DNA of 61,962 bases from a virus (Duplodnaviria > Caudoviricetes): IMG/VR virus record IMGVR_UViG_3300016654_000115, positions 1 to 61,962 of that record. One strand, 5' to 3'. The notes under the pieces are model-generated. The model saw only the letters and a list, made by a program, of their open reading frames with translations, had not been told where the DNA came from and did not search any database. How positions within the stretch are numbered: position 1 is the stretch's first letter; every line of letters starts with the position of its first letter. This document shows positions 26,201 through 38,694 of this stretch, piece by piece. The position numbers and the translations under genes were made by a program.

Positions 26201-26608
26201 GCTGTTATGGATTTAAACAGCGATAGCCCGAGAGCAACAAAAAGGTTTGAGCAGTTGCCTGTGATTAAACGCTTTGCTGTTGACCCGGAGGCAAGGGGAA
26301 ATGTCACCGCCTACTACGACCTGAAGAACTCTGTTGACACGGCGGTCAGAACATCAAATCTTCTTGAGAGAACTCAGAACCTAGATAACTACGGGCCATA
26401 CCGGGAATCTGTCATGGGAATGCTGGCTACCCGAGATTATGTTTTGAACCTTGAGAAGACCATGAAAGAGTTGCGGGAGATAAAGATTCTTATCCGGTCC
26501 TCCGACATGTCGGGAGATGATAAGAGAGATGCCTTGCTTGAGATCAACAGGAGGGAGGACCAGTTGGTCGAGAACATCAGGGAGATCAGGAACTTCGCAC
26601 GCCCATGA
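17279..26608 (+). CDS. Giant polyvalent (probably injected) protein: zincin peptidase, HDxxGH domain, two ART-like domains, HhH-glycosylase-like domain, LPD38
   Basis: HESLH (aa 896), FRAVHDAFGH/GEENAW, YHGT...PVY...NP...GFD...NQLKS, VTVDMW, NFNRKG...IPFLNA...IPIPFEVG. Confidence 0.75.
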   Translation: MAKFRVEMVDGRAYEVEAPEGTPQETLFAAIQERYPLAFKSTEELESAKSAPFRAADIAKSAKMGLAGGVQSLTDIFGAGNVASQYLQEAQQEAFKGLSPERIAEIERREELKKRAEGKGLGREIGASVGAFTEAPAQTLAQALFSSAPIIASAAIPGGQAAGAARLLAAARGPTAVGAAMGLGGQKGQDYETVKRELLSQGIPEEEAEQRAQKAAEYSAQNILRQAGAAAAGAVEGRFGVEPAVGRLLSRRTIEGGKTPPTWSQAIGQSVLGEAAPEALQAAVGTIGTNQALDQAGIPTELSRGLAGTVAHDALVGAVLGLGLSPAQKANLSRDYEADRAAERKKFEDEERAKIEEIARKQQEEYERKGYQEVRKAFAPQDLTKNPLGTFKAQDLSPAVVEYLDNFRAQSGLPKLKEYSIEDIADAMPGREPAKEKEALAQFVGERAGYTPDSQVTVQTVLDEALRKNIDIDARSFTDFLGRATGVNDIREMMPQQLFAAYKSLSALPESPTIREIEGGTNATRFDQAQYESALNGIDALLAELGRPASLPAVNEEIKRTTGLKSGKAIQSLLDEAIRRGDLDEVQTPRYRTIVPETGEIVGAIYDTREEAEKAAPKGAEVQEVTQRAISSPSATARLPEGYDIREGLLQTGEAPQAYDVMAGDQILNRVKSEEEAQTKLESYAKTRAAETENARKVIDKQNARLTKSQENLNLMQVEGRGRTNVYQQAIAKHQKLTDEVNQIIAKQNERIRKFDPDTTPLSIAPVGAKAVGKTGFTVLKDGAPVATFPTREKAESSILEGLPTSRLEELTREKVRRGIGPKAQKELERRAGKEKPEQVTKLEADLRKVLNKFGLKDVSLEVAEAIDGGKAGGSYLNSLIKVALDEANPVRTLRHESLHALRDLGFFTDQQWKALTNQAKSKWIDTYLKQKNIDGQPLRAGETSRYEAYVSAYMGDMDSIIEEAVADAFADFDANKAPPGMIAAILKKLNDFFTALRNALNGAGYQTAEDVFGKIERAELTPSAKAQGRMQERLARRGERYATTEPKQPSVRPSLRGGEGKQEEGAGGRDRGRRFTGRGLAPLAGAPIIQGATGPDPRLVAVAQQYAEKIGIPFRRQAEYVEVDESRARRIAQAYEDMPHAPQDPEVKEAYADLIQQTKDQYDALVDAGYEFTFFDSNTDPYDGNPFNAMRDLRNNKRMAVYGTYDGYGTDGITGAAVEDNPMLADTGLRWPDQNGVEHMVTANDLFRAVHDAFGHGLEGAGFRARGEENAWQAHAKLFTGPAVGAITSETRGQNSWLNYGPYGEKNRTAKLQDTVFAEQKTGLMPEWTWTEGMVAEEPTGIVLGQKQTGASSFNGTHYGTSRVDSLSGAKYGTGIRGAERRRLEATDDERIKRRVYFYIPKPDGTMPIPEAGLGQYVYTQSFDNILGPGAEMSRLFSEARGDANTFESLVVDAGYDGYAAPNMGMMVVLNNDVPVDYKGTAAQQREKLSLRSDIFAKRLNSIGVKSTDDFWKLWQNIMIGTAGPRPGLSGVLDERPRQEQIKDAVAVWKKDVEQYGMRRYLYGYLNTADDEIVKAKVAREILELAQIKPTVQNAIWAYNSLPGHVISANDAAVIRSLPDDFDQKAIFKDKEFPRKPKTGTDWLTGKELIEPEAENEPKFSLRIMRGEITPKFDGKVTVDKIGKYFDDQIFAEFGRKLDYNNPQDFDRAIRVANEEVAYQLTQEKSGLDWYEEDIKKAFKDTIKIIPELKKEQNRILFSIMAGIMSPQTNARDNWFIAAKAFQHYLNTGVIPGVNPETGGLWQGGTTSVNKKVQLEFLNRLVAQVGQRKAVDWAMDDHTVAEINDYRSEYGKLKTGIDGKLGDIKPGLYAFGPKVGPFVSNINGIHDVTVDMWMTRTFNRYFGTMIGPDGKIIDAPTEPQRRAIKEFVNKVAQDANIKPYQAQSVLWFYEQSLYRKLGSPAPSHGFSDGAAKFVSESGGGGGKEGVPVAAKKAQRKRLSLRAPQTPEFKRWFGRSKVVDEGGEPKIMYHGTAGDFEAFRPGKADAIFVSPNAKFVESFGGYGEDELIEQIAKQFDQQPERKRSLLIPLIDDAIADKRLATDKNSNGLYGTTREELIDRFMDSDLSNLMGSVGIGSQLRDALENELPSRANIIPVYVKSDNPFDYENTKHVNQVARLVQNNVGVGTMFLADGSRLKTKDLSQLLKEGSWRAIESEDVQDAIRSLGFDAFHIKEGTIKNLAVYNPNQLKSVFNQRPTERPEMRFNLRANIDPSLMAMVDRVTPERIEKTWVQSITEAIAPKSYSHFRQQALNRYNRLGEAEVFRSQKMGGPIRMAEDNAESAALMSDNAAGVAASALGVHDRAGGAPVYRNGVTSVWNDNGNIKGPVAIFAPLAKYNNPDIYRLYQFWAGSTRARRLLDQGKERLYTAAEITRAKELLQQFPEFEQIQKEWIKYNNALVDYGVATGVLTPEKAAEFKKYSDYIPFYRQLDGERTAGPKIFQSISGVKPPKKIKGGEQPLDDLIETVVRNTQSMIEAGMKNVAAQKAVNLAADIGLATRLPSKQTREDVVTVLERGVEVSYEVADRLFIDAVKSLNLPDLPFIGLLSGPANLLRNLVTKDPGFMLANMMRDSMAAWVTSGVKMVPVTSTVINFGKAIAGRDPVFLALLNAGIIGGYEFSQNVKAGAAEMEKAMNKVAGVRPKGAAAALKPFTSLWDALERGTTASDAATRMEVYKQTMAETGNEAEALFRALEVMNFNRKGSSPVIRILTAAIPFLNARMQGLDVLYRASFGRMVNKDAATIQKAFFVRGMTIAALSCMYWALTHDDDEYKKQEEETKDNNWLIPSLGIKIPIPFEVGVLFKVVPERIMAYAFGTDTGKDFLDSMSRQLVSTLVINPIPQAALPVVEAVTNYSFFTQREIIGQGLKDVEPKFQVGPSTSLVSQTIGESLGISPMKLDHIIKGYTGTMGMYMIDMLDAVMDLNSDSPRATKRFEQLPVIKRFAVDPEARGNVTAYYDLKNSVDTAVRTSNLLERTQNLDNYGPYRESVMGMLATRDYVLNLEKTMKELREIKILIRSSDMSGDDKRDALLEINRREDQLVENIREIRNFARP
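20403..20579 (+). CDS. Possible nested 58-aa ORF in the +1 frame of the giant gene
   Basis: AGGAG 6 nt before the ATG; spans a low-complexity linker of the host frame. Confidence 0.35.
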   Translation: MQPLNLNNLPFDPALEAAKESKKREQEVETEEDGLRAEALRRLQVRRLFREQPGQTRD

Positions 26609-27606: not shown

Positions 27607-27770
27607 TTCTCTTCCTCTTCCTTGATTTCAACCTCCGACCACGCGGCGGGGTGATAGACCTTGCCCTCGTCGTCGGTGCAAAAAGAATACATTCCATCAA
27701 TGTGGTGAAAAAGCAACTTAATGCCCTCCACCTTGATGCGGGTGTTGCGGGGAACGTCGTAGAGTTTCAT
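27603..27770 (-). CDS. 55-aa hypothetical protein (not in ORF track)
   Basis: MKLYDVPRNTRIKV...HIDGMYSFC; RBS AGGAGAGA; ATGA overlaps. Confidence 0.65.
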   Translation of the reverse strand: MKLYDVPRNTRIKVEGIKLLFHHIDGMYSFCTDDEGKVYHPAAWSEVEIKEEEEK

Positions 27771-27913
27771 TCTTTCTCTCCTCTTGCTCTGATGGCGGCG
27801 CGGGTGCGCTGGAGTTCTGCATTGCTGATGTGATACGCGCCGAGCATTTCAATAATTGCCTCGCGCTCGGCTGCTGCGACGAGTGCGGCGAAACGTTCAA
27901 GAACCGTTCTCAT
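27767..27913 (-). CDS. Hypothetical protein (ERE..IRARG family)
   Basis: LERFAALVAAAERE...AAIRARG. Confidence 0.6.
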   Translation of the reverse strand: MRTVLERFAALVAAAEREAIIEMLGAYHISNAELQRTRAAIRARGEKE

Positions 27914-29279: not shown

Positions 29280-29732
29280 TCAGTCCCACAACGCTTGGTA
29301 ATATTTGCCAAAAAGTCGCAGACCGTTTTTGATTCGCGCGTGATGGGCGTCTAAACCTTCACGATCAACCGTGATTTGAGCAAGCTGATCCATAGCAGGG
29401 GCTAATTTATCCACACCGGAGTCGTCAAAAAACTTGCTGTCGCCTTCGATCAACGCGTCAAAGGTCCAGATCATTTCATCGAGAATGTAGTCCCAGCGTT
29501 TAAAGTGATTGGAATCTACGTCGCCGTCCTCTGCATCTTTGGCGTCTTGCAGTTCTTTTGGTACGTCGTCGTCATCGGTTGCTGGCGCACCGTGTTTCGT
29601 GGCTTTCAGTTGCTTCAACATCGGCGCAATAATTAGGGCTAACGTGGTGTCCATGTTCCACGTGTCCCACTTGTCTATATTGATGCTGACCTCGCGCTCA
29701 TCATCGGTGTATTCACCAATATGCACCTTCAT
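29280..29732 (-). CDS. Conserved phage hypothetical protein
   Basis: IDKWDTW.MD.TLA.II.PMLKQLK..KHG.P...LFGKYY..LWD. Confidence 0.75.
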   Translation of the reverse strand: MKVHIGEYTDDEREVSINIDKWDTWNMDTTLALIIAPMLKQLKATKHGAPATDDDDVPKELQDAKDAEDGDVDSNHFKRWDYILDEMIWTFDALIEGDSKFFDDSGVDKLAPAMDQLAQITVDREGLDAHHARIKNGLRLFGKYYQALWD

Positions 29733-29847
29733 TTTTCTCTCCTGTCAAATTTTTTTTCATGTCATTAATTATCAACAACCCGCCAATTATCCATGGAAGG
29801 ATAACTAACAAACAAAAAACCAGCATGATCCAGTCAATTGTTAGCAT
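29713..29847 (-). CDS. 44-aa membrane peptide (not in ORF track)
   Basis: MLTIDWIMLVFCLLVILPWIIGGLLII... Confidence 0.45.
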   Translation of the reverse strand: MLTIDWIMLVFCLLVILPWIIGGLLIINDMKKNLTGEKNEGAYW

Positions 29848-29993: not shown

Positions 29994-30195
29994 TTTCCAT
30001 GTACCCTTTCATTTTGGAGCCAATCCAGAACCCATCTTTATTTAGAGCCATCCCATCCTCAATCATTTCTTCCTCTGTTTTACACCGCCTGTCTATCCCG
30101 TATTTTCCCGTGCGGTGTTTTTCAAATGCGCCGGTGCTGTTGAAGTATTTCTTGCAGGCGGCGCATTGATTGTGATTGCCCCTAAGCAGTTTCAT
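29968..30195 (-). CDS. Zn-binding FDXHR-type phage protein
   Basis: QCAAC..YF.S..AFEKHRTG....R.C. Confidence 0.7.
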   Translation of the reverse strand: MKLLRGNHNQCAACKKYFNSTGAFEKHRTGKYGIDRRCKTEEEMIEDGMALNKDGFWIGSKMKGYMENEKTNNAS

Positions 30196-30493
30196 TGATT
30201 GCCTCAGACAATTTGATTTCTGCCAAGGATGCCTCAATCAACTCTGCAAACGATTTTCCTGAAGGAAAACGCATTTGCGCGGCGGTGCAGTTGTTGACCT
30301 TTTTAATTGATGCGTCCACAGCATCGTTCCAACCGCTGACGTATCTGTCTCCCTCAACAACCCTTGCGTTGATGGCCTCCCGAACAATCATGCTCATTGG
30401 CATATTTTGAGATTTTGAAAACTTTTTTAGCTTGGCGTATTCTTTTTCCCCAAGATATGCCATGAATGGTTTAAATTTAACCGAATGGGTCAT
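30182..30493 (-). CDS. Ribbon-helix-helix (CopG-like) DNA-binding protein
   Basis: FMAYL....Y.KL......MS.IVREAI. Confidence 0.6.
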   Translation of the reverse strand: MTHSVKFKPFMAYLGEKEYAKLKKFSKSQNMPMSMIVREAINARVVEGDRYVSGWNDAVDASIKKVNNCTAAQMRFPSGKSFAELIEASLAEIKLSEAINETA

Positions 30494-30863
30494 ATTCTTC
30501 CTCGTAATTTTTAGAAATAACATCAAACCTTTCTTGTGCTTTTCTGTTGCCGTTCAGTTCTGACCTTGACTCAATGCCAAGTCTCAGGCAGAGATTGATG
30601 GCGGCCTCCTCCTCCGATGCGACCCCCAGCCACTCCTGAAAAGACATGTCCCTGCAAAGCATCGCCGCCCTCTGAACCCTGTTGTTATATGATTTGGCGG
30701 ACTCATCGTCCTCAATCCTTACCATGGCACAGCCATACCGCGCCCCAACAAAGTCCCGGAACATTTCCTCAGGCAGTTCATCGGGGTGAATTGCCAAGGT
30801 CAGAATAAAACCGTTGCGGTCCTGCTTTAAAGCAATCTTTCTTGCCTCAAACTGAAGTGCCAT
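30477..30863 (-). CDS. Hypothetical protein
   Basis: Coupled ORF, GI.SRSEL motif. Confidence 0.6.
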   Translation of the reverse strand: MALQFEARKIALKQDRNGFILTLAIHPDELPEEMFRDFVGARYGCAMVRIEDDESAKSYNNRVQRAAMLCRDMSFQEWLGVASEEEAAINLCLRLGIESRSELNGNRKAQERFDVISKNYEEEYDPFG

Positions 30864-31140
30864 TTTGAGAGTCCTTCAAACCAAGCTGATGCTCCAGATA
30901 TGAAATTACAAATTTGTAACCCATGATTTGGTTTTTTAGCTGTTTAATAACCAAACTATCGGCGGAAATAACCTCTCGCAGAATATTTTGCCCTTGCGAT
31001 ATTTCAGTCTTTGGTTTTTGCAATTGGCTTTTTATTTGGTAAATCAAGGCGCTATTGCATTTGACTTGTTTTGCAATCTCCGATGTTTTGATTTTCGGAT
31101 TGGCTTTAAGCAACTCTCGAATGCGATCTGATTTGGTCAT
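30847..31140 (-). CDS. HTH DNA-binding protein
   Basis: KSDRIRELL..NP....EIAKQV....L.Y; RBS AGGAGAGA. Confidence 0.6.
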   Translation of the reverse strand: MTKSDRIRELLKANPKIKTSEIAKQVKCNSALIYQIKSQLQKPKTEISQGQNILREVISADSLVIKQLKNQIMGYKFVISYLEHQLGLKDSQNGTSV

Positions 31141-31150
31141 GGTTCTCTCC

Positions 31151-31411
31151 TTAAAACTCATCTTCTTCCCTCTGCTGGGAGGGGGGGGATTGGCGGTTGA
31201 CAGACAGAGACAGGTAGGTTGCGCCTGTCTTGCTGACCTTCTTCCAGCCAGAAATCTTGTAAATATGCAAGCCGTTCTCAATCGTCACATTGGACAAGTC
31301 CTTGGGGTTGATCGCAATCTCCCCCCAGTAGTCCGGTGAATTCTGGGTCCTCTTGGACTGTGACGCCATGAGGCGTCCACTATCTGGCTTTTGCTCAAAC
31401 TTCCGATCCAT
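31151..31411 (-). CDS. Putative ssDNA-binding protein (DUF736-like)
   Basis: G.L...K....PDY.G.I...ISGW.K......YLSLSV; acidic tail EEDEF. Confidence 0.65.
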   Translation of the reverse strand: MDRKFEQKPDSGRLMASQSKRTQNSPDYWGEIAINPKDLSNVTIENGLHIYKISGWKKVSKTGATYLSLSVNRQSPPSQQREEDEF

Positions 31412-32159
31412 CTTGCTTCTCCTGTTTAAATGAATCCTTCTTTGCGGTGAAGGCATCCCGAACCTCGGCAAACCAGTCTGGGTGACTGACCTTGAGGCTA
31501 TCTAGTTGGCCTTGATTGGCCTTCCAGTACGCACGCAGTCCCTTCTCATCCTTGCAGATGGACAGATACTGCTTCATCCCGTCGCAAAACAGACGGGCAT
31601 TCGCAACCTTCGCGTCCCCGCCTTCTGCGACCGTTTGGATGGCGGTGGCTATCGCAGCCTCAACCGCCTCTTTCGCAGCTTCTGGGACGGACGGCGAAGC
31701 CTCTGGCAGGTCTTCCCCCGCATAGATGTACAGGCCGAGCCCGAACAGACTCAGGCACTTGGTCATGCACCGCATCAGGGCAGTGTTGACCTGAAAGGAG
31801 TCTGGGTTGGGGATGGATTTGTTCCGGTGATCCATCACCGGCAGAAAGCATTCCCGGGTCACGCCCCGCAGGGTCACAGAAACAAACACCATCCCTGTGC
31901 CACCCGGCAGGGACATGTACGGCAGTTCCGTGTACTCGTCGTGTTTAAATGTCCTGACATGGAATGTCGCTGCCGGGTCGGCCTTCAGAGCCTCCGCCCA
32001 AGCCCACGCCCACGAGAGATAGGTCAGTCCCTGCTTCTTTTCCGTCTTTTCATTGACGTTAACCTTGAGCAGAGTAATCTCTAAATTGTTCGCACCACTG
32101 CGCAACCCCGCAGTAGTTTCCAATACATCGCTTGGGCTCTCCAAGACGGGTTTCGACAT
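31395..32159 (-). CDS. Sak3/DUF1071-like single-strand annealing recombinase
   Basis: EKK.GLTYLSWAWAW, LPVMD.RN, RC.TK....GLGLYIYAGEDLP; RBS AGGAGA. Confidence 0.85.
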   Translation of the reverse strand: MSKPVLESPSDVLETTAGLRSGANNLEITLLKVNVNEKTEKKQGLTYLSWAWAWAEALKADPAATFHVRTFKHDEYTELPYMSLPGGTGMVFVSVTLRGVTRECFLPVMDHRNKSIPNPDSFQVNTALMRCMTKCLSLFGLGLYIYAGEDLPEASPSVPEAAKEAVEAAIATAIQTVAEGGDAKVANARLFCDGMKQYLSICKDEKGLRAYWKANQGQLDSLKVSHPDWFAEVRDAFTAKKDSFKQEKQDGSEV

Positions 32160-32922
32160 AGCCTTTCTCCTTTTCGGCCAACTCGTTGGCCTCTTCAATG
32201 GTTTTAAACAAACGAATGGCAGTTTTCCTGCCCTGCTTTTTGACTGCATACACAGCCTCTGACATCCACCTCTCTGAGTCTGAACAAAGTTGAAGGGGCT
32301 CCCCAAGGTCGTGGCTGACCTTGGCCTCTCTGTGCATGTCAAGCCTCTCCCGGATGTATGTTTCTGCGGACACGATGTCCCACCTTGGGATGTCAATCAT
32401 GCATATCGGTGCCTGCGGGTATCCCTCCCTGATTTCGTGGCGCGAAAAATCTCTGACAAGGGCACAGATTTTCAAACCACAGACAGGAACCTTTTTTACA
32501 ACCTCAACCAACCATTTATAGACGTTTAACTGCTGAATCCAATCCTCCTTTGTGTTCATCACAGACCAAGCGGAGGTGAACTTGTAGTCAATCAAAACTA
32601 CGCCGCCCTCCACCTTCTGCTGGAGATCAATCGCTCCACTAATCGTTACACCGTCGATGCTTGCGAAGAGTCTTTCCTCGGTGATGTAGTTGGGGGTCTG
32701 GCCCCTCTCCATGACCACATGGAGTGCGGAACCCATCATCGACCACAGCATGTCCGAAACATCCTGCTCGATGACATCGTTGTACTGCTCACGCAGCCTT
32801 CTTATCCTTGGGGGCGACATCAACTCGGTGACGCTGTACTGGGAGGCCCCCTTGGTGTAGTATTCCTTTCCCGCCAGCGTCAGCAGCGGCTCCGGCACCC
32901 CATGCTTGTTGGTGATCTTCAT
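32059..32922 (-). CDS. PD-(D/E)XK (Cas4/RecB-like) exonuclease
   Basis: SVT.L, G.A.H, E, SG.ID, IDYK.T, QLN.Y; C-terminal Cys cluster. Confidence 0.8.
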   Translation of the reverse strand: MKITNKHGVPEPLLTLAGKEYYTKGASQYSVTELMSPPRIRRLREQYNDVIEQDVSDMLWSMMGSALHVVMERGQTPNYITEERLFASIDGVTISGAIDLQQKVEGGVVLIDYKFTSAWSVMNTKEDWIQQLNVYKWLVEVVKKVPVCGLKICALVRDFSRHEIREGYPQAPICMIDIPRWDIVSAETYIRERLDMHREAKVSHDLGEPLQLCSDSERWMSEAVYAVKKQGRKTAIRLFKTIEEANELAEKEKGYVETRLGEPKRCIGNYCGVAQWCEQFRDYSAQG

Positions 32923-32941
32923 TGTTTCTCCGAGGTCATGC

Positions 32942-33400
32942 ATGAATAATAGTGATAGTGCGAACGAATTGCAAGCCCTTGTGCAAGTAATTTACGGCGA
33001 ACCAGCTTCAAAAAGTAACAGCAGGAGGGTTGTCAAGTTCGGAGGCATGCCCCGCCTCATCAAGAGTGAAAAGGCACTGACCTACTCCGACACATTCAGA
33101 GAGCAATGCACACAACTTGCAACATTGATGTCGGGCGATCTGCGGGTTACTCTGCACATTTACTATGCCTCTCGAAGGCCCGATCTCGACGAGACATTGA
33201 TTCTGGATTTGATGCAGGGGCTGATCTACCACAACGACAGGCAGGTCAAGGAGCGCCACACCTACTGGCACCTCGACCCAGAGACGCCCCGCTCGGAGAT
33301 TCTGATTGAGAAAATCCCGGAGGTTGCGCCCGAAAAAAAGCCCCGGTCCAGCCGGGGCAAAGTCTCTAGGAGAGAGACGCCCGAAGCCGGGCCCGAATAA
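32942..33400 (+). CDS. RusA-like Holliday junction resolvase (start uncertain)
   Basis: GEP.SK.N, RRPDLD....D......NDRQV. Confidence 0.75.
   Translation: MNNSDSANELQALVQVIYGEPASKSNSRRVVKFGGMPRLIKSEKALTYSDTFREQCTQLATLMSGDLRVTLHIYYASRRPDLDETLILDLMQGLIYHNDRQVKERHTYWHLDPETPRSEILIEKIPEVAPEKKPRSSRGKVSRRETPEAGPE
33333..33358 (-). terminator. Intrinsic terminator on the minus strand
   Basis: GCCCCGG/CCGGGGC stem followed by T7 on the minus strand. Confidence 0.7.
33333..33392 (-). ncRNA. Predicted three-hairpin sRNA of about 60 nt with an anti-SD loop
   Basis: Extended -10 TGGTACATT (33399-33407, minus); hairpins GCCCG/CGGGC and GTCTCT-CTCCT-AGAGAC, then the terminator. Confidence 0.5.
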
Positions 33401-33409
33401 TGTACCACA

Positions 33410-33426
33410 GGCTCACCGGGTGAGCC
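33410..33426. promoter_or_regulatory. Palindrome GGCTCAC-CGG-GTGAGCC between divergent promoters
   Basis: Perfect 7-bp inverted repeat in the intergenic region. Confidence 0.4.
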
Positions 33427-33483
33427 ACAGTTAAACCTGTGTCTTGGTTCTTACAATCACATAAAAGGTAACAATTTTTCCCG

Positions 33484-33512
33484 TTGACGGGGGGTTCCCG
33501 TCGGCGCAGAAT
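33484..33512 (+). promoter_or_regulatory. sigma70-type promoter TTGACG-N17-CAGAAT
   Basis: Correct spacing; upstream of the structured RNA and replication genes. Confidence 0.55.
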
Positions 33513-33518
33513 GAAGTT

Positions 33519-33745
33519 TGGCGCAAGCCCGTACTCCGCACGTTAGCAGGGGCCGCAAGTGGGGCCGCCCGGAAGAAAACCGCGACACCGTATGCCTTAG
33601 GGCTAGGGGGCAGTTCCCGAACAACCGGTGGGGCTAGTCGAATCTGCAAGCCCGGGGGTTTCGAGAGAAACATGCAGATGCCTTAACAGGCGGGCGACCT
33701 CTTCCTCTCCGTTTACACGGGGTAGGGGGAGTCTTTGAGGCGACC
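33519..33745 (+). ncRNA. Candidate structured RNA or long leader (about 230 nt)
   Basis: Helices 33561-71/33691-701, ATCTGCA/TGCAGAT, GTTTC-GAGA-GAAAC and a 3' hairpin; no credible ORF. Confidence 0.5.
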
Positions 33746-33765
33746 GATGTAAAACTAAGGATACG

Positions 33766-34266
33766 ATGGATGTCTTGACCCCCGCCGGGATAAAAACCCT
33801 TGAGGATGAAGAGAGGGCAAAACAGATATTTGAATGTCACTATCCATCATTCAAATATATACATACACCAAAGGATCAGCCATCTGATATTGATGCAATA
33901 CTAATTGATCAAAACAGGGTGCGCGGCGTTATTGAAACCAAATGTCGCTATGACGTCACCCTTGAAGAATTCAATACAAAGTACAAGGCCTCATGGTTGA
34001 TTACCTTTGACAAGGTTTTAAAGGCCAAGGCTCTAGCAGATGGTCTCAGGGTTCCTTTGTACGGATTTTTGTATTTAAAACAATCAGATGTTTTAATGGT
34101 TACGAAAATATATTCTGACGGGGCATTTCTCAGGAAAATATTCATTGACAACACCCTTACCCAAAAAACCGTAAACGGGGGGCAGATTGTTAGAACCAAC
34201 GCATACATTGACATGGCGGGCGTCAATGTATACAAATTTCAAGATAAAAACAGAGGATTCCAATGA
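33766..34266 (+). CDS. PD-(D/E)XK-family endonuclease-like protein
   Basis: S.ID.......IETKCR motif. Confidence 0.6.
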   Translation: MDVLTPAGIKTLEDEERAKQIFECHYPSFKYIHTPKDQPSDIDAILIDQNRVRGVIETKCRYDVTLEEFNTKYKASWLITFDKVLKAKALADGLRVPLYGFLYLKQSDVLMVTKIYSDGAFLRKIFIDNTLTQKTVNGGQIVRTNAYIDMAGVNVYKFQDKNRGFQ

Positions 34267-34511
34267 GGGATTACAAATCTGAATACAAAAACTATGATGG
34301 CACAGATGCCGTCAAGAAGAAGAGGGCCCAGAGAAACAAGGCCCGCCGGATGATGGAGAGGGAGGGTGCCGTACACAAGGGGGATGGGAAGGATGTTGAC
34401 CACAAGACCCCCCTCAGCAAGGGCGGTACAACCGCCCGATCCAATCTCAGGGTCAAGAACTCCTCATCCAACAGGAGTTACCCGAGAACATCCTCCGGTT
34501 CAATCAAATGA
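34263..34511 (+). CDS. Small HNH endonuclease
   Basis: GKDVDH..PLSKGG.....NLRV.....NRS. Confidence 0.8.
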   Translation: MRDYKSEYKNYDGTDAVKKKRAQRNKARRMMEREGAVHKGDGKDVDHKTPLSKGGTTARSNLRVKNSSSNRSYPRTSSGSIK

Positions 34512-36190
34512 TTGCATTTGATGATTTCCCGGGCGATTTTGCCCGGGTTGTCTGTCCATTCTGTGCGGGGGACAGAAAGAAATCAAGGCTAAAGGAAATG
34601 GCCCTGAGCCGCCGCCCCGACGGGGCTATCCTCTATTTTTGTCATCACTGCGAGGCAAGCGGGTCGGTCCAGCCACGCAAGCAGGAGTTTAAATTGTCGG
34701 CAGTTCCATCACTCACTATTGTTTCAAAGCAATTGACAGATCGCCACTATGCCTATCTTTCAAAGAGAGGAATATCCAAAGAAACGGCAGATAAAGCAAA
34801 GTTATTTGCGGCAGAGAAATATTTCAATCGGTTGGGAAAACAGGCAGATGCAATAGGCTTTCCATATTACAGGAAGGGGGCTCTGGTTTCGGCGAAATAC
34901 AGGTCATTCCCAGATAAAGATTTCACACAGGATTCTGGGGGAGCCCATGATTTTTTCAACATCGACAACATTGACCCGACACAGCCCCTGATTATTGTTG
35001 AGGGTGAGATTGATTGTTTAACCGTTATTGAGGCCGGGCTCACTAATGTTGTTAGTGTTCCGGGCGGGGCGCCCATCAAGGTGGCGGATGGAAAGGTTCT
35101 TCCCAGCGAAGACAAGAAGTTTGCCTTTGTCTGGAATGCAAGAGAGGTTATTGATCAGGTTCCATCTGTTATTTTGGCAACAGATCAGGATGGGCCGGGG
35201 CAGGCTCTGGCGGAGGAACTGGCAAGAAGGATTGGAAAAGAGAAATGCAGGATAGCCAAGTTCGACAGAAAAGATTTGAATGAGGTTCTGCTCGACGATG
35301 ACCCAACACAGGATAGCAAGGAAAAGATCAAGGAGATTATTGACGGGGCAACCCCCTACCCCATCTCCGGCCTGTCGGAGGCCAACACCTACCTTGATCG
35401 TTTAAATGATTTATTTGCAAAGGGAACAGGCAAGGGGTTTTCCACCGGCTATCAATCGCTCGACACCATTTACACCGTTGCGCCCGGGCAACTGACTGTC
35501 GTTACAGGTTACCCCTCATCGGGTAAGAGCAACTTCGTAGACCAGTTGATGGTCAACCTAGCGACCCGGGATCAGTGGAAGTTCGCGGTTGCGTCCTTCG
35601 AGAATCAACCCGAGATACACATCACCCGACTGATGGAGATCAAGACCCGCAAAAGATTCTTTGACGGTAGGGAGAGGATGGATCAACCGGAGATGCAGGA
35701 TGCATTTAAATGGGTAGATGACCATTTCCTTTTTATCGATTCTGCGGGCGAGGAACCAAATACCCTCGATTCAATCCTTGAGCGGGCAAGGGCGTCGGTT
35801 AAACGCATGGGAATCAGGGGTATGGTTATTGACCCCTACAACTACATCGACCTTCCAAGGGATGGGACAGAGACCGAGGCTATCAGTCACATGCTTACAC
35901 GGGTGCAGAAGTTCTGCAAGGCCAACGATGTACATGTCTGGTTTGTTGCTCACCCCGCAAAGATTCAGAGGAGCGGGACAGACCAACCGCGCCCGGACGG
36001 TATGAGCATCGCAGGATCAATGGCATGGTGGGCAAAGACGGACTGCGGCGTTACCGTGCATCGGCAGGATCAGTACGTCGAAATCGCGGTATGGAAATGC
36101 CGCTACAGGTGGGTAGGGACGCAGGGTGAAACGACCCTTCTCTACAACAAAACCTCGGGCACATACGCCGAGATTTTGGACATGTTTTAA
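34508..36190 (+). CDS. T7 gp4/Twinkle-like DNA primase-helicase
   Basis: CPFC/CHHC Zn finger, TOPRIM EGEID and DQD, Walker A GYPSSGKS, VIDPYN, VAHP. Confidence 0.92.
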   Translation: MIAFDDFPGDFARVVCPFCAGDRKKSRLKEMALSRRPDGAILYFCHHCEASGSVQPRKQEFKLSAVPSLTIVSKQLTDRHYAYLSKRGISKETADKAKLFAAEKYFNRLGKQADAIGFPYYRKGALVSAKYRSFPDKDFTQDSGGAHDFFNIDNIDPTQPLIIVEGEIDCLTVIEAGLTNVVSVPGGAPIKVADGKVLPSEDKKFAFVWNAREVIDQVPSVILATDQDGPGQALAEELARRIGKEKCRIAKFDRKDLNEVLLDDDPTQDSKEKIKEIIDGATPYPISGLSEANTYLDRLNDLFAKGTGKGFSTGYQSLDTIYTVAPGQLTVVTGYPSSGKSNFVDQLMVNLATRDQWKFAVASFENQPEIHITRLMEIKTRKRFFDGRERMDQPEMQDAFKWVDDHFLFIDSAGEEPNTLDSILERARASVKRMGIRGMVIDPYNYIDLPRDGTETEAISHMLTRVQKFCKANDVHVWFVAHPAKIQRSGTDQPRPDGMSIAGSMAWWAKTDCGVTVHRQDQYVEIAVWKCRYRWVGTQGETTLLYNKTSGTYAEILDMF

Positions 36191-36192
36191 AC

Positions 36193-36212
36193 AAGGTAAA
36201 AACTTTTACCTT
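36193..36212. promoter_or_regulatory. Perfect palindrome AAGGTAAAA-AC-TTTTACCTT
   Basis: 9-bp inverted repeat; a 16/20 copy lies at 33465-33484. Confidence 0.45.
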
Positions 36213-36244
36213 AAAGAGAAAGGGGGGCATAGCCCCCCCTTCTC
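36213..36244 (-). terminator. Intrinsic terminator between convergent units
   Basis: GGGGGGC-ATA-GCCCCCC stem; T-rich tail on the minus strand. Confidence 0.7.
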
Positions 36245-36359
36245 AATATGGCGCGTCGGGTATCTTGTCCCTCTGCCTGCGCTCGTACTCCCTTTGCTGT
36301 TTGGGTGTCCAAGGTATCGGACCACCCGGGGGCGGGAAAGGCCAGTTAAACGGCTGCAA
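36243..36359 (-). CDS. 38-aa WPFP-motif peptide (not in ORF track)
   Basis: NWPFPPPGGPIPWTPKQQREY...; TTG start uncertain. Confidence 0.45.
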   Translation of the reverse strand: MQPFNWPFPPPGGPIPWTPKQQREYERRQRDKIPDAPY

Positions 36360-36582
36360 GGTAGACCGCCCGGTAGATGGTTTGGGCAGACCCGACATGG
36401 GTACCCACCCTGCATGGTTGCATCCGCATTACCCTCCATAGCCCTGCGTTCCAAACAATGTAGCGTTCGCCCGGGGCAATGAACCGCTCATCGTTTTGCA
36501 GGTCGATCAGGTCATCAGCGGCATAGGCCACCTTCAAAAACGCAGGGTTGCGGTTGGTGATGGTCTTTATTTTGGTGAACAT
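36346..36582 (-). CDS. Hypothetical protein
   Basis: Abuts the upstream ORF in the early cluster. Confidence 0.5.
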   Translation of the reverse strand: MFTKIKTITNRNPAFLKVAYAADDLIDLQNDERFIAPGERYIVWNAGLWRVMRMQPCRVGTHVGSAQTIYRAVYLAAV

Positions 36583-36816
36583 TTAAACGACCTCAAACAT
36601 CTTGTCGTCGTCGTCAATGTCGTCAAGCACTCGACCGTCGATGGTTTGCGAAAGCATTTCCCATGCAGCATCCGCATGCTGCCGAGGCACTTGCAGGATC
36701 GGTGCGTGGAAAGATCGACCGTTGCGCCTGTGGGGAATTCCCTGCTTGTCAAGCATTCCCTCGATGTAGCGCAACTTCGGATCGTTGGTGCGTTTGCAAA
36801 AAGTTTCCCATGTCAT
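36583..36816 (-). CDS. Hypothetical protein
   Basis: RBS AGGAGA. Confidence 0.6.
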   Translation of the reverse strand: MTWETFCKRTNDPKLRYIEGMLDKQGIPHRRNGRSFHAPILQVPRQHADAAWEMLSQTIDGRVLDDIDDDDKMFEVV

Positions 36817-36849
36817 TTAAACATCTCCTTCTTAGACTACGGTCATCAA

Positions 36850-37080
36850 TTACGGGCGACCGTCAGACCCAACCCAACCCATCGCAACAGGGTCAAAGGG
36901 TTCTTCCTCATATTCGCAGTTCAGTACCTCATGTACCTGATATGCCCCCTCACCTACAGCGAACCCGTGCCGCTGCGCGTAGTCCATCGCTGCCTGCTCA
37001 GAATCGAACAGTCCATATACTTGCACCGGGGAGTGCGGGAAAAAGTGCAACACAACGAATTTGCCAGTTGTCTCGTCCAT
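36850..37080 (-). CDS. Hypothetical protein with C-terminal MGWVGSDGRP
   Basis: YG.FDS...A..YA; C-terminal motif shared with 37535-38209. Confidence 0.6.
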   Translation of the reverse strand: MDETTGKFVVLHFFPHSPVQVYGLFDSEQAAMDYAQRHGFAVGEGAYQVHEVLNCEYEEEPFDPVAMGWVGSDGRP

Positions 37081-37111
37081 GTTTAAACCTTTCATGTGAT
37101 GTCAAGGGATG

Positions 37112-37219
37112 TCAGGTGGTCCACCAGTAGACCGCCGCAACAGCGATGCCGATGCCGATGGCAATCGCAAGCAAAAAATCCATTGCCGCCTCGGCGCGGC
37201 GCAGTGCAGGGTGTTTCAT
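37112..37219 (-). CDS. 35-aa membrane peptide (not in ORF track)
   Basis: DFLLAIAIGIGIAVAAVYWW; ATGA overlap with the upstream gene. Confidence 0.55.
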   Translation of the reverse strand: MKHPALRRAEAAMDFLLAIAIGIGIAVAAVYWWTT

Positions 37220-37509
37220 AGCCCCTCCGGAACGTCTACCTCGTCACCGAGGCGGGATGCAACGTAGCAGCGCATGGCTGCAATCAGGGGAGTAGGCCCA
37301 CTCTGTAGGCCAGCGGCCCACCCACGCTCGTTTCCCAAGGGGAAAACGCCAATTCCCTCACGCTCGATGATTGGGCCACCGATAGCCCAACTGGTAGAAG
37401 GCTTGAAGGTGTAGTACCCGTCCGGGGCTAGATCAAACTCAACCCCTTCACACTTCGCCACTGCCCAATCGAGCGCGGTATCTGTCAGTTCACTTGTCTT
37501 GATCTTCAT
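37216..37509 (-). CDS. NinX/DUF2591-like protein
   Basis: ALDWAVAK, PST.W..GGPIIERE, GPTPLIAAMRCYV. Confidence 0.75.
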   Translation of the reverse strand: MKIKTSELTDTALDWAVAKCEGVEFDLAPDGYYTFKPSTSWAIGGPIIEREGIGVFPLGNERGWAAGLQSGPTPLIAAMRCYVASRLGDEVDVPEGL

Positions 37510-37534
37510 TGCTTCTCTCCTTCTTGGTTACAAA

Positions 37535-38209
37535 TTAAGGGCGACCATCATGGCCGACCCACCCCATCCCAGCGTAGTCGTTGGGGTCTTCGGGTTGCGG
37601 TTGAGTATCCCTCCACGGGGTGATCGTCCACTCCCCAACTGTGAGGAACTTCTCCTCGGTGCGACCGAACGCCCAGTCATTCGCCCACTTCTCAAACGCT
37701 TGCACGATCTCGACCGGGATGTCAGGGTGCGGCACGCCAACTGTGTCGTCAGCGCCGTCGTATTGCCAACCCCACCAATGGTAGTTGTCGCCCGGGGGTG
37801 ACAGGTTCTCTCCCCACCCAATGCTGACGAGGTAAGTCTCCTCCCAGCGCCCCTCTCGCCCGACGCTGAATCCTTCGTATTCCTGATTCTCACCCCTGTC
37901 CAACTCTGCCTTGTCCCATGCGTTGCTGATGCAATCTTGGATGGCATCAATCGTCCACTCGTTGGTGCTGGCGTAACCTCCACCGAGGGTGTCAAAGTCA
38001 TCAGACACAGACACCTCGACCTTGATCTTGGCGCCGTCCTCTGACCAGATGCGTGCGGATGCGATCTCCTTCTTGCTGGAGTACCAACCCGTGTCGAACG
38101 GCTCGTGCGCCTCAAGCGCGGCCTTGAGTTCTGCTTCGCCGTCGTCGTACCAATCAGACAGCCCCCAATGGGCGCCGTCTCCGCGTTGGAATGCTTCAAG
38201 TTTCTTCAT
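37535..38209 (-). CDS. Acidic Trp-rich hypothetical protein with C-terminal MGWVGHDGRP
   Basis: 224-aa ORF, RBS AGGAGA. Confidence 0.65.
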   Translation of the reverse strand: MKKLEAFQRGDGAHWGLSDWYDDGEAELKAALEAHEPFDTGWYSSKKEIASARIWSEDGAKIKVEVSVSDDFDTLGGGYASTNEWTIDAIQDCISNAWDKAELDRGENQEYEGFSVGREGRWEETYLVSIGWGENLSPPGDNYHWWGWQYDGADDTVGVPHPDIPVEIVQAFEKWANDWAFGRTEEKFLTVGEWTITPWRDTQPQPEDPNDYAGMGWVGHDGRP

Positions 38210-38218
38210 TGCTTTCTC

Positions 38219-38443
38219 CTATTTGATAAGTTGACCAAAGGTTCTCAGCGCAGTGTCGAATGCCATTGCGGCACTGCCAACCTGATCTATCGGGCAGGGG
38301 TAGATTTCCCATGAAACCTCAAGCGTGCGCTGCCGCGCGTAATTCACGAAGTTCGCTGCCTTGTCGTGCATGTTGAACGCATAGAACCATGTTGGTTCAC
38401 TCGCGCCAGAGTTAGTGCCGACGCACACAAATACTGTTTGCAT
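38219..38443 (-). CDS. Hypothetical protein
   Basis: RBS GGAG; coupled. Confidence 0.5.
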   Translation of the reverse strand: MQTVFVCVGTNSGASEPTWFYAFNMHDKAANFVNYARQRTLEVSWEIYPCPIDQVGSAAMAFDTALRTFGQLIK

Positions 38444-38445
38444 GT

Positions 38446-38694
38446 TTAAATCTCCGTTGCTTTTGCGATAGCGGCCAGTGCCTCGGCCTCGATGGTTTTT
38501 GCCCAATGACCCTTATCCATCAGGGCAATGTTTGCAATGGTTTGCAGCGCGGCCAGCATGTCAGGCGCGGCAGCGAACAGCAGTGCCTGCTGCCTGCGCA
38601 GGGTCATCGGTCGGTGCGACCCGACGACACGGGCGACCTCGACCTCCCCTTGCGGGGAGTGCTGCCATACCGTTGTGTTTTTCGCGTACATCAT
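38446..38694 (-). CDS. Hypothetical protein (AAAPD.L.AL family)
   Basis: A.L.AAAPDMLAAL...AAIAKAT. Confidence 0.65.
   Translation of the reverse strand: MMYAKNTTVWQHSPQGEVEVARVVGSHRPMTLRRQQALLFAAAPDMLAALQTIANIALMDKGHWAKTIEAEALAAIAKATEI

Follow-up and report, generated by a model that had tools for sequence, protein, structure and literature searches.

The genome of an uncultured lake phage (IMG/VR record IMGVR_UViG_3300016654_000115), which was analysed over its whole length of 61,962 bp and is called the window here, harbors a conserved cassette on the minus strand at the 3′-end of a rusA-like resolvase gene. The cassette comprises a -10 promoter region, a predicted small RNA (sRNA) of about 60 nt with a CU-rich stretch that resembles an anti-Shine-Dalgarno (anti-SD) sequence, and an intrinsic terminator. 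Early and late genes of the window and of three related genomes use different dialects of the ribosome-binding site (RBS), and the CU-rich seeds of related phages co-vary statistically with the RBSs of the phage that carries them. We propose, with slightly less than even confidence, that the cassette encodes a trans-acting anti-SD sRNA which masks the RBSs of the phage's own early-dialect leaders.

Organization of the sRNA cassette

A first-pass annotation of the window had described an extended -10 region on the minus strand, followed by the hairpins GCCCG-GCUU-CGGGC and GUCUCU-CUCCU-AGAGAC and by a terminator with seven U residues. All of these elements are indeed present, each in its place (Table 1), and the predicted fold agrees with them. 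RNAfold returned precisely three hairpins with an energy of -32.4 kcal/mol (z -3.1), and one of 200 shuffled sequences folded equally well. The -10 region is not accompanied by a good -35 region. Within the second hairpin, the CU run has a mean unpaired probability of 0.51, half of the seed being located inside the stem. The terminator, which overlaps the final rusA codons on the opposite strand, ranked second among the terminator-like sites detected by a pattern scan of 8.5 kb (30000-38500). The whole stretch from 33333 to 33400 on the minus strand resides within the rusA frame (32942-33400, plus strand), the overlap being the 3′-end of rusA. On the minus strand, no genes were found upstream of the sRNA between 33400 and 36200.

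Just upstream of the -10 region there is a perfect palindrome of 8+8 bp (Table 1), a possible operator. On visual inspection, similar palindromes of the type GCTCA...TGAGC were noticed close to the cassette of several relatives. The purine-rich complement of the seed was also considered as an RBS of a small open reading frame (ORF) on the plus strand. This candidate was rejected because a start codon at a usable distance was seen neither in the window nor in the relatives.

Conservation of the cassette in related phages

By means of the primase (70-77% identity), 80 related loci were retrieved, 58 of which contain rusA. Each of these 58 loci possesses the unit of -10 region, unpaired CU-rich motif and terminator in the spacer between rusA and the primase gene. 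The cassette is antisense to rusA in 55 loci, of which 53 were recognized by a script that looked for a GC-rich hairpin followed by a U-run on the minus strand where rusA ends, and two weaker ones by hand. The other three loci (L028, L031 and L034) contain it in the opposite orientation on the other strand, co-oriented with rusA and about 200 nt further along. Of 50 distinct cassette stretches of 125 nt, 48 contained the hexamer TA[ACT]A[ACT]T at a distance of 50-112 nt ahead of the 3′-end, and the remaining two contained TAATAT. A feature of the anti-SD sRNA class, namely an own promoter (-10 region in 48/50) and terminator (58/58) outside a longer transcription unit, is thus found here. In most of the relatives inspected (e.g., L011, L015, L016, L032, L053, L075), the terminator hairpin directly adjoins the rusA stop codon with its 5′ base, and in some (e.g., L018, L062, L068) the stop codon is located elsewhere.

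A second set of loci was retrieved via the exonuclease (45-73% identical exonucleases). In this set the cassette was located on the rusA strand in L117, L118, L121-L124, L127, L128, L130 and L132, and it was not found in L126, L134-L139, L140 and L141. The two sets suggest that the cassette is a conserved, self-contained and gene-like sRNA unit, which would be functional as a module in either orientation.

After trimming, the predicted transcripts comprised 47 distinct RNAs of 55-92 nt, whose sequences and hairpin layouts diverge widely. A CU-rich run outside the terminator (CUCC, UCCU or similar) was flagged by script in 45 of these variants; in the other two, the run is fused with the terminator and was therefore skipped by the script rule, yet it is visible by eye. 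Over the 45 variants, the CU run is unpaired with a mean probability of 0.77. Since the rest of the RNA and the hairpin layout diverge, we concluded that selection acts on the CU motif itself.

Beside the CU run, on either side of it, 41 of the 47 variants carry the motif (GC)AGUUG(C/U) (e.g., L016, 1380-1458, minus strand), which does not exist in the RNA of the window. The complement GCAACTGC of the relatives' GCAGUUGC motif was present at 33 sites outside the cassette in 749 kb, where about 23 were expected; it was thus not enriched, and none of these sites was a conserved one. The sequence GTTTAAAC, which is common in spacers of the relatives, occurred at two sites in the window (1.27 expected) and was hence not enriched there. 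Closer homologues of the window's own sRNA variant were found neither by an exact-pattern scan of viral contigs (no hits) nor by blastn against the 80 loci (no match over the sRNA body). We also observed that many start codons of the window (37080, 38443, 40358, 50255, 57597) are directly preceded by the spacer TTTAAAC or TTAAAC. The same string makes up the -10 region (GGTTTAAACT) of many of the relatives' sRNA promoters.

Early and late genes differ in their ribosome-binding sites

The sequence AGGAGAGA, which is complementary to the seed, occurs at five sites in the 61,962-bp genome, compared with 1.18 expected, and one of 100 shuffles attained this number. One of the sites is the sRNA's own complement (33368-33375, plus strand). 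The four others are all located 3-4 nt before leftward starts (27770, 29732, 31140 and 37509), exactly as the first-pass annotation had reported. Its lists of starts preceded by AGGAGA (28353, 29201, 31411, 32159, 36816, 38209) and of late starts preceded by AGGAGT or AGGAGC (2686, 48810, 50255, 51147, 53072, 54200, 57597; exceptions 49777 and 59362) proved correct as well. Left out of these lists were two early exceptions with AGGAGT (27452 and 28790) and an additional early site with A (26885). The typical late RBS reads UAAGGAGU/C and the typical early one (A/C)AGGAGA(G/A)A.

In the window, a site was counted if a spacer of 4-10 nt separated AGGAG from a start codon and the ORF comprised 45 codons or more; ORFs inside longer late genes (3797, 20403, 54041) and inside the primase gene (34694) were left out. 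An A after AGGAG was present at 11 of 13 leftward early sites and at two of nine late starts (Fisher p 0.007). Another count was performed on four genomes, the window and the related genomes G001, G004 and G005, whose modules were mapped by homology. According to a rule set beforehand, a row was left out if more than 60 codons upstream of it were open, and an ORF lying antisense in a late block was not counted. By this count, early and late sites with A amounted to 10/12 and 3/11 in the window (p 0.012), 13/22 and 2/10 in G001 (p 0.060), 16/20 and 1/9 in G005 (p 0.0009), 7/10 and 1/16 in G004 (p 0.0013), and 46/64 and 7/46 when all four genomes were pooled (Fisher p 2.7e-9). The early/late RBS dialect is real and was replicated in four genomes. 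The early/late difference that the earlier annotation had put forward thus held at the level of the motif. With all genes of the window tabulated by pairing energy, however, it was not significant (see below), which by the annotation's own criterion speaks against the proposal.

In the four genomes, 4, 3, 7 and 3 sites located 2-12 nt before a start matched the phage's own seed perfectly over 8 nt or more, and all 17 resided in early modules. One hit inside the primase gene and one belonging to an antisense ORF in a late block had been set aside from this number.

Co-variation of seeds and ribosome-binding sites

For the analysis of co-variation, 47 loci forming 19 sequence clusters were used. 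Duplex energies were calculated for every CU seed with the translation-initiation regions (TIRs) of every locus, leaving out five TIRs that were closer than 60 nt to the cassette, and the values were double-centred. On the top three TIRs of its own phage, the own seed was stronger than foreign seeds by a residual of -0.80 kcal/mol (permutation p 0.00015), with negative values in 15 of the 19 clusters. As controls, reversed seeds gave -0.26 and windows inside the same genes +0.12 (not significant), while 27 composition-preserving shuffles of the seeds yielded a mean of 0.02 (sd 0.14, minimum -0.24). The mean effect over all TIRs (-0.26) is largely compositional, because it was reproduced by reversed (-0.17) and shuffled (-0.22) seeds. 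Long matches within the own phage extended over 12 bp in L050 and over 11 bp in L030 and L018. In statistical terms, the seeds thus co-vary with the RBSs of their own phage to an extent that exceeds the effect of composition. An accessible seed which is complementary to several RBSs and co-evolves with them, another feature of the anti-SD sRNA class, is likewise found at this statistical level.

Proposed mode of action and alternative explanations

According to the interpretation that we prefer, the sRNA gene would be transcribed leftward by the host RNA polymerase from the extended -10 region, and transcription would end at its own intrinsic terminator. The resulting RNA of about 60 nt would display the CU-rich, anti-SD-like stretch UCUCUCUCCU, part of it in a hairpin loop. 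This seed would pair in trans with the purine-rich RBSs (AGGAGAGA/AGGAGA) marking early, leftward and replication-module genes, and could form 6-10 base pairs with early-dialect RBSs, compared with about five with the late dialect (UAAGGAGU/C). Pairing would block the access of ribosomes and perhaps trigger decay of the message, and the synthesis of early proteins would drop as the sRNA accumulates. The anatomy and conservation of the cassette, the RBS dialect and the co-variation of seeds and RBSs are observed, and we infer the transcription of the RNA, its pairing in vivo, and the direction and timing of its effect. A more far-reaching version is an RNA-only temporal switch, in which early genes would be marked by AGGAGA(G/A)A and late genes by UAAGGAG(U/C), a single sRNA would shut off the whole early class, the seed would co-evolve, and the cassette would be portable in either orientation. 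We regard this version as doubtful.

Several points weigh against a masking of the early RBSs. All 13 sequencing runs containing the stretch are DNA, and the sRNA transcript is a prediction. Half of the window's seed is buried in the 6-bp stem, and the promoter resembles an ordinary one of the host type, which leaves the timing of the shut-off unexplained. A full match of 8 nt exists at only four of about 33 early genes of the window. Over all genes of the window, the pairing energy, which was computed as duplex energy without site accessibility and with gene starts called by a simple heuristic, averaged -6.6 kcal/mol for early (n=33) and -5.5 kcal/mol for late genes (n=51), a difference that was not significant (p 0.13). 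With a stricter start rule the p-value in the window was 0.72, strong sites being present at 4/23 early and 7/51 late genes, and in G004 strong sites were not enriched among early genes either (1/29 early, 4/35 late). A consistent top target among orthologous genes was not found, the Sak leader belonging to the top three in 9 of 35 cases. Moreover, the masking model does not account for the GCAGUUG motif that 41 out of 47 variants carry and that is missing from the RNA of the window. The pooled p-values overstate independence because orthologous genes share RBSs by descent, and the RBS dialect could have a cause that has nothing to do with the sRNA. Thus, the first-pass proposal that one trans-acting sRNA silences the early regulon is partly supported, by the conserved cassette, the dialect and the co-variation, whereas the small number of full matches and the pairing energies speak against it; its further suggestion, a substitute for a protein repressor, is speculative.

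Alternatively, the RNA may be directed against the host. It would then be a phage copy of a CU-rich, RBS-masking sRNA of Burkholderiales, whose main targets would be host mRNAs and which would slow host metabolism or translation; its fit to the early RBSs of the phage would be incidental, since all strong SD sequences look alike. RF02278, the Betaproteobacteria toxic or double-hairpin sRNA, was the best or near-best weak Rfam match for the window (23.1 bits) and for L080, L069, L050 and L011, four of eight relatives searched (24.9-28.8 bits), while for the other four loci no match at E ≤ 1 was listed. Members of this family attenuate growth if over-expressed, according to an excerpt of PMC5688073. 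In addition, primase relatives occur in metagenome-assembled genomes labelled beta proteobacterium or Burkholderiaceae, and the betaproteobacterial RNA family RF02932 occupies the same spacer in L061. However, all RF02278 scores are far under the cut-off of 50, and a role confined to the host predicts neither the co-variation of seeds and TIRs nor perfect matches in early modules only, so that we consider a host-directed regulator unlikely.

Still other explanations dispense with a trans-acting role. A cis-antisense RNA similar to lambda OOP, which had been offered as an alternative from the beginning, would pair with the 3′-end of the convergent rusA message, as well as with transcripts that read through into the replication genes, and would trigger cleavage of the message. 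The whole RNA of the window does lie antisense to rusA, 55 of the 58 loci have the terminator embedded in the final rusA codons, and the location beside the replication module recalls oop (excerpt of PMC12197685). Yet the cassette is co-oriented with rusA in the three primase-derived loci and in the ten exonuclease-derived loci named above, the overlap with rusA is restricted to the terminator in most antisense cases, and an invariant CU-rich motif is not needed for such a role. As the CU motif, the -10 region and the terminator persist in either orientation, a cis-antisense function towards rusA is disfavoured, and we judge it very improbable. The same low probability is assigned to the assumption that the RNA itself has no function and that the terminator insulates rusA and the downstream leftward promoter, or that the cassette serves as a decoy for a CU-binding protein (ribosomal protein S1 or Hfq). 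No other part of the cassette is as well conserved as the terminator, and the conserved leftward promoter of exo-sak, about 370 nt downstream of it, would profit from insulation, but an insulator requires neither an own conserved -10 region (48/50) nor a conserved unpaired CU motif, and it would not persist once inverted.

Comparison with known RNAs and regulators

In phage T4, RegB cleaves GGAG in early Shine-Dalgarno sequences, and RegA and RegB switch off early messages via their TIRs. The masking of early RBSs proposed here would be similar in that early messages are silenced through a feature of the RBS region, and it would differ in the use of an RNA in place of proteins. To our knowledge, phage-encoded small RNAs are few, and most of those known are from E. 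coli phages.

An Rfam scan of the whole window revealed no family at gathering score. RF00519 (suhB/mmgR, alpha-r8) matched the RNA of the window over model positions 1-77 of 77 with 36.2 bits (E 3e-6), which is below the gathering score of 41. Both RNAs have a GCCC...GGGC hairpin, a CU-rich single strand (CUCCCU-AGACUUU) and a terminator, and MmgR is a trans-encoded sRNA (excerpt of bioRxiv 10.64898/2025.12.09.693200), but it is alphaproteobacterial and tied to polyhydroxybutyrate (PHB) metabolism. Among records of five relatives, RF00519 scored 17.9 and 12.8 bits in two and gave no match in three. Because the relatives score low or nil, the likeness to mmgR is peculiar to the variant of the window and probably convergent.

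A closer resemblance in design exists to the Burkholderia double-hairpin 'toxic' sRNAs (RF02278; ncS03, ncS05, NcS27, ncS62). As described in an excerpt of PMC5688073, these are 57-92 nt long and consist of a few hairpins and a terminator, and their CU-rich segments, which are unpaired, form the reverse complement of RBSs. This description also applies to the RNA studied here. Their over-expression slows growth (excerpts of PMC5688073, PMC4603805 and PMC10987360), and the likely host group of the phage would also be Burkholderiales. In contrast to the phage RNA, whose best matches are the phage's own early RBSs, they are chromosomal bacterial genes. Since the scores of 23-29 bits contrast with a cut-off of 50, homology to RF02278 is not established, and the sRNA of the window is a member of neither RF00519 nor RF02278.

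Of the phage RNAs, lambda OOP is similar in being a 77-nt RNA with its own promoter and terminator, which overlaps a convergent gene at the 3′-end and is located beside replication genes (excerpt of PMC12197685). OOP, however, acts by full cis-complementarity to cII, while in the phages studied here the orientation towards rusA is not conserved and the CU-rich motif is. A conserved antisense overlap was not found, as 55/58 cassettes are antisense and 3/58 together with 10 further loci are co-oriented. The c4 RNA of P1/P7 and the sar RNA of P22 also cover a ribosome-binding region and carry their pairing sequences in loops (excerpt of PMC12197685), but each of them targets one message (ant), whereas the RNA of the window would target a class of RBSs.

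Genome context

The virus record of 61,962 bp is complete and bears direct terminal repeats. A rightward structural block, which includes the terminase (44277), the portal protein (45776) and a protein of 3109 aa ending at 26608, wraps around the ends of the record. Two leftward blocks (42734-36206 and 32943-26586) are filled with small, mostly unassigned genes. Between them lies a short rightward module of rusA (32942-33400), a spacer of 366 bp, a PD-(D/E)XK-like gene, a small HNH gene and the primase-helicase gene (34508-36190). By blastn, the region 32000-35000 did not match any of 50,697 phage records, and the closest primase of a cultured phage is only 33% identical. Primase relatives with 60-67% identity were found in metagenome bins labelled beta proteobacterium or Burkholderiaceae; these labels give a weak hint at a betaproteobacterial host, possibly of the Burkholderiales.

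The rusA frame of the window extends about 60 nt past its usual end, across the whole sRNA gene, while in most relatives the stop codon abuts the terminator hairpin. The Pfam RusA match in the window stops at residue 134 of 164.

The leftward block adjoining rusA opens with a PD-(D/E)XK exonuclease gene (exo), which is followed by the gene of a Sak single-strand-annealing protein. A promoter of the sequence TTGCAA-17-TAT(T/C)AT is located directly before exo in most of 49 distinct upstream sequences (48 relatives and the window), and a few sequences have a variant -35 hexamer, e.g., TTGACC or TTGCGC. Because in the window this promoter occupies 32946-32974, the exonuclease probably starts at 32922 (MKITNK..., as in relatives) and not at 32943. 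As exo has its own promoter, we rejected the possibility that the cassette represents a terminated leader of the exo-sak operon, comparable to the 6S transcript of lambda (pR'-tR') or to a nut/put site.

Table 1. Positions of the sRNA cassette, its predicted targets and adjacent elements in the window
Feature	Position	Strand	Remarks
Extended -10 region TGGTACATT (TG-n-TACATT)	33399..33407	-	hexamer TACATT at 33404-33399; from sequence
Predicted sRNA, about 60 nt	33333..33392	-	5′-end deduced from the -10 region; 3′-end is the U-tract
5′ hairpin GCCCG-GCUU-CGGGC	33379..33392	-	RNAfold; most variants of the relatives also have a 5′ hairpin
Hairpin 2, GUCUCU-CUCCU-AGAGAC	33362..33378	-	RNAfold
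CU-rich seed UCUCUCUCCU	33377-33368	-	within hairpin 2; CUCCU loop at 33372-33368
Intrinsic terminator GCCCCGG-CUGGA-CCGGGGC plus U7	33333..33358	-	hairpin 33358-33340, U7 33339-33333; 7-bp all-GC stem, 5-nt loop
Palindrome GGCTCACC-G-GGTGAGCC, perfect 8+8	33410..33426		just upstream of the sRNA -10 region
AGGAGAGA in RBS of leftward gene starting at 37509	37514..37521	-	predicted target; best duplex, -15.5 kcal/mol
AGGAGAGA in RBS of leftward gene starting at 31140	31144..31151	-	predicted target; sequence match
AGGAGAGA in RBS of leftward gene starting at 29732	29736..29743	-	predicted target; sequence match
AGGAGAGA in RBS of leftward ORF starting at 27770 (55 aa)	27775..27782	-	predicted target; sequence match
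rusA-like resolvase gene	32942..33400	+	Pfam RusA 7e-7; PHROG RusA-like 4e-9
Sigma-70-type promoter TTGCAA-17-TATTAT of the leftward exonuclease-Sak operon	32974-32946	-	inside the first rusA codons

A pseudoknotted RNA in the same spacer

Another conserved structured RNA of about 225 nt (33523-33748, plus strand) is located in the window, flanked by the promoter of the sRNA and by the gene at 33766. It is non-coding, as its three reading frames match the relatives equally. The structure comprises 46 pairs in 10 helices; paired cells make up 96.2%, compared with 84.6% in shuffles, and both sides change in 19 of the pairs. A pseudoknot is formed by two of the helices, each of which is 100% paired and has three co-varying pairs. 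Because of the G-U pairs, the plus strand was assigned as the RNA strand. No Rfam match for this RNA was found. A model of it (R1) detected the RNA in 56 of 88 sources searched, in 55 of the 56 on the plus strand. Plus means the sense of the primase gene for the loci fetched by the primase, and the only minus-strand match is L093, an unoriented contig fetched by a DNA pattern.

The RNA also occurs once in the cultured bacterium Variovorax rhizosphaerae (L104, 9796-10041, plus strand; 104 bits, E 1e-31), with a TATACT box upstream. There it resides in an island resembling mobile or defence elements, next to an Abi_2-like gene, an IrrE-type M78 peptidase gene, a DUF6791-ThiF gene and a Tn3 transposase gene. 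In a sample of 150 further genomes from the bacterial family of Variovorax rhizosphaerae, it was not detected. A 19-mer of the RNA gave nine matches in bacterial genomes, seven of which were chance matches. In the lineage of L055 and L061, the pseudoknotted RNA is replaced by the Betaproteobacteria-1 RNA (RF02932; L061, 3990-4115, plus strand), which scored 87.8 bits (cut-off 49.4). It thus seems that structured RNAs can replace one another in this spacer.

Implications

The early/late RBS dialect is by itself a robust observation that can be reused, and it can aid the annotation of gene timing in uncultured phages. If the sRNA does mask the early RBSs, the virus would time a whole class of genes at the level of translation, using a class-specific RBS and one tiny RNA instead of a protein.

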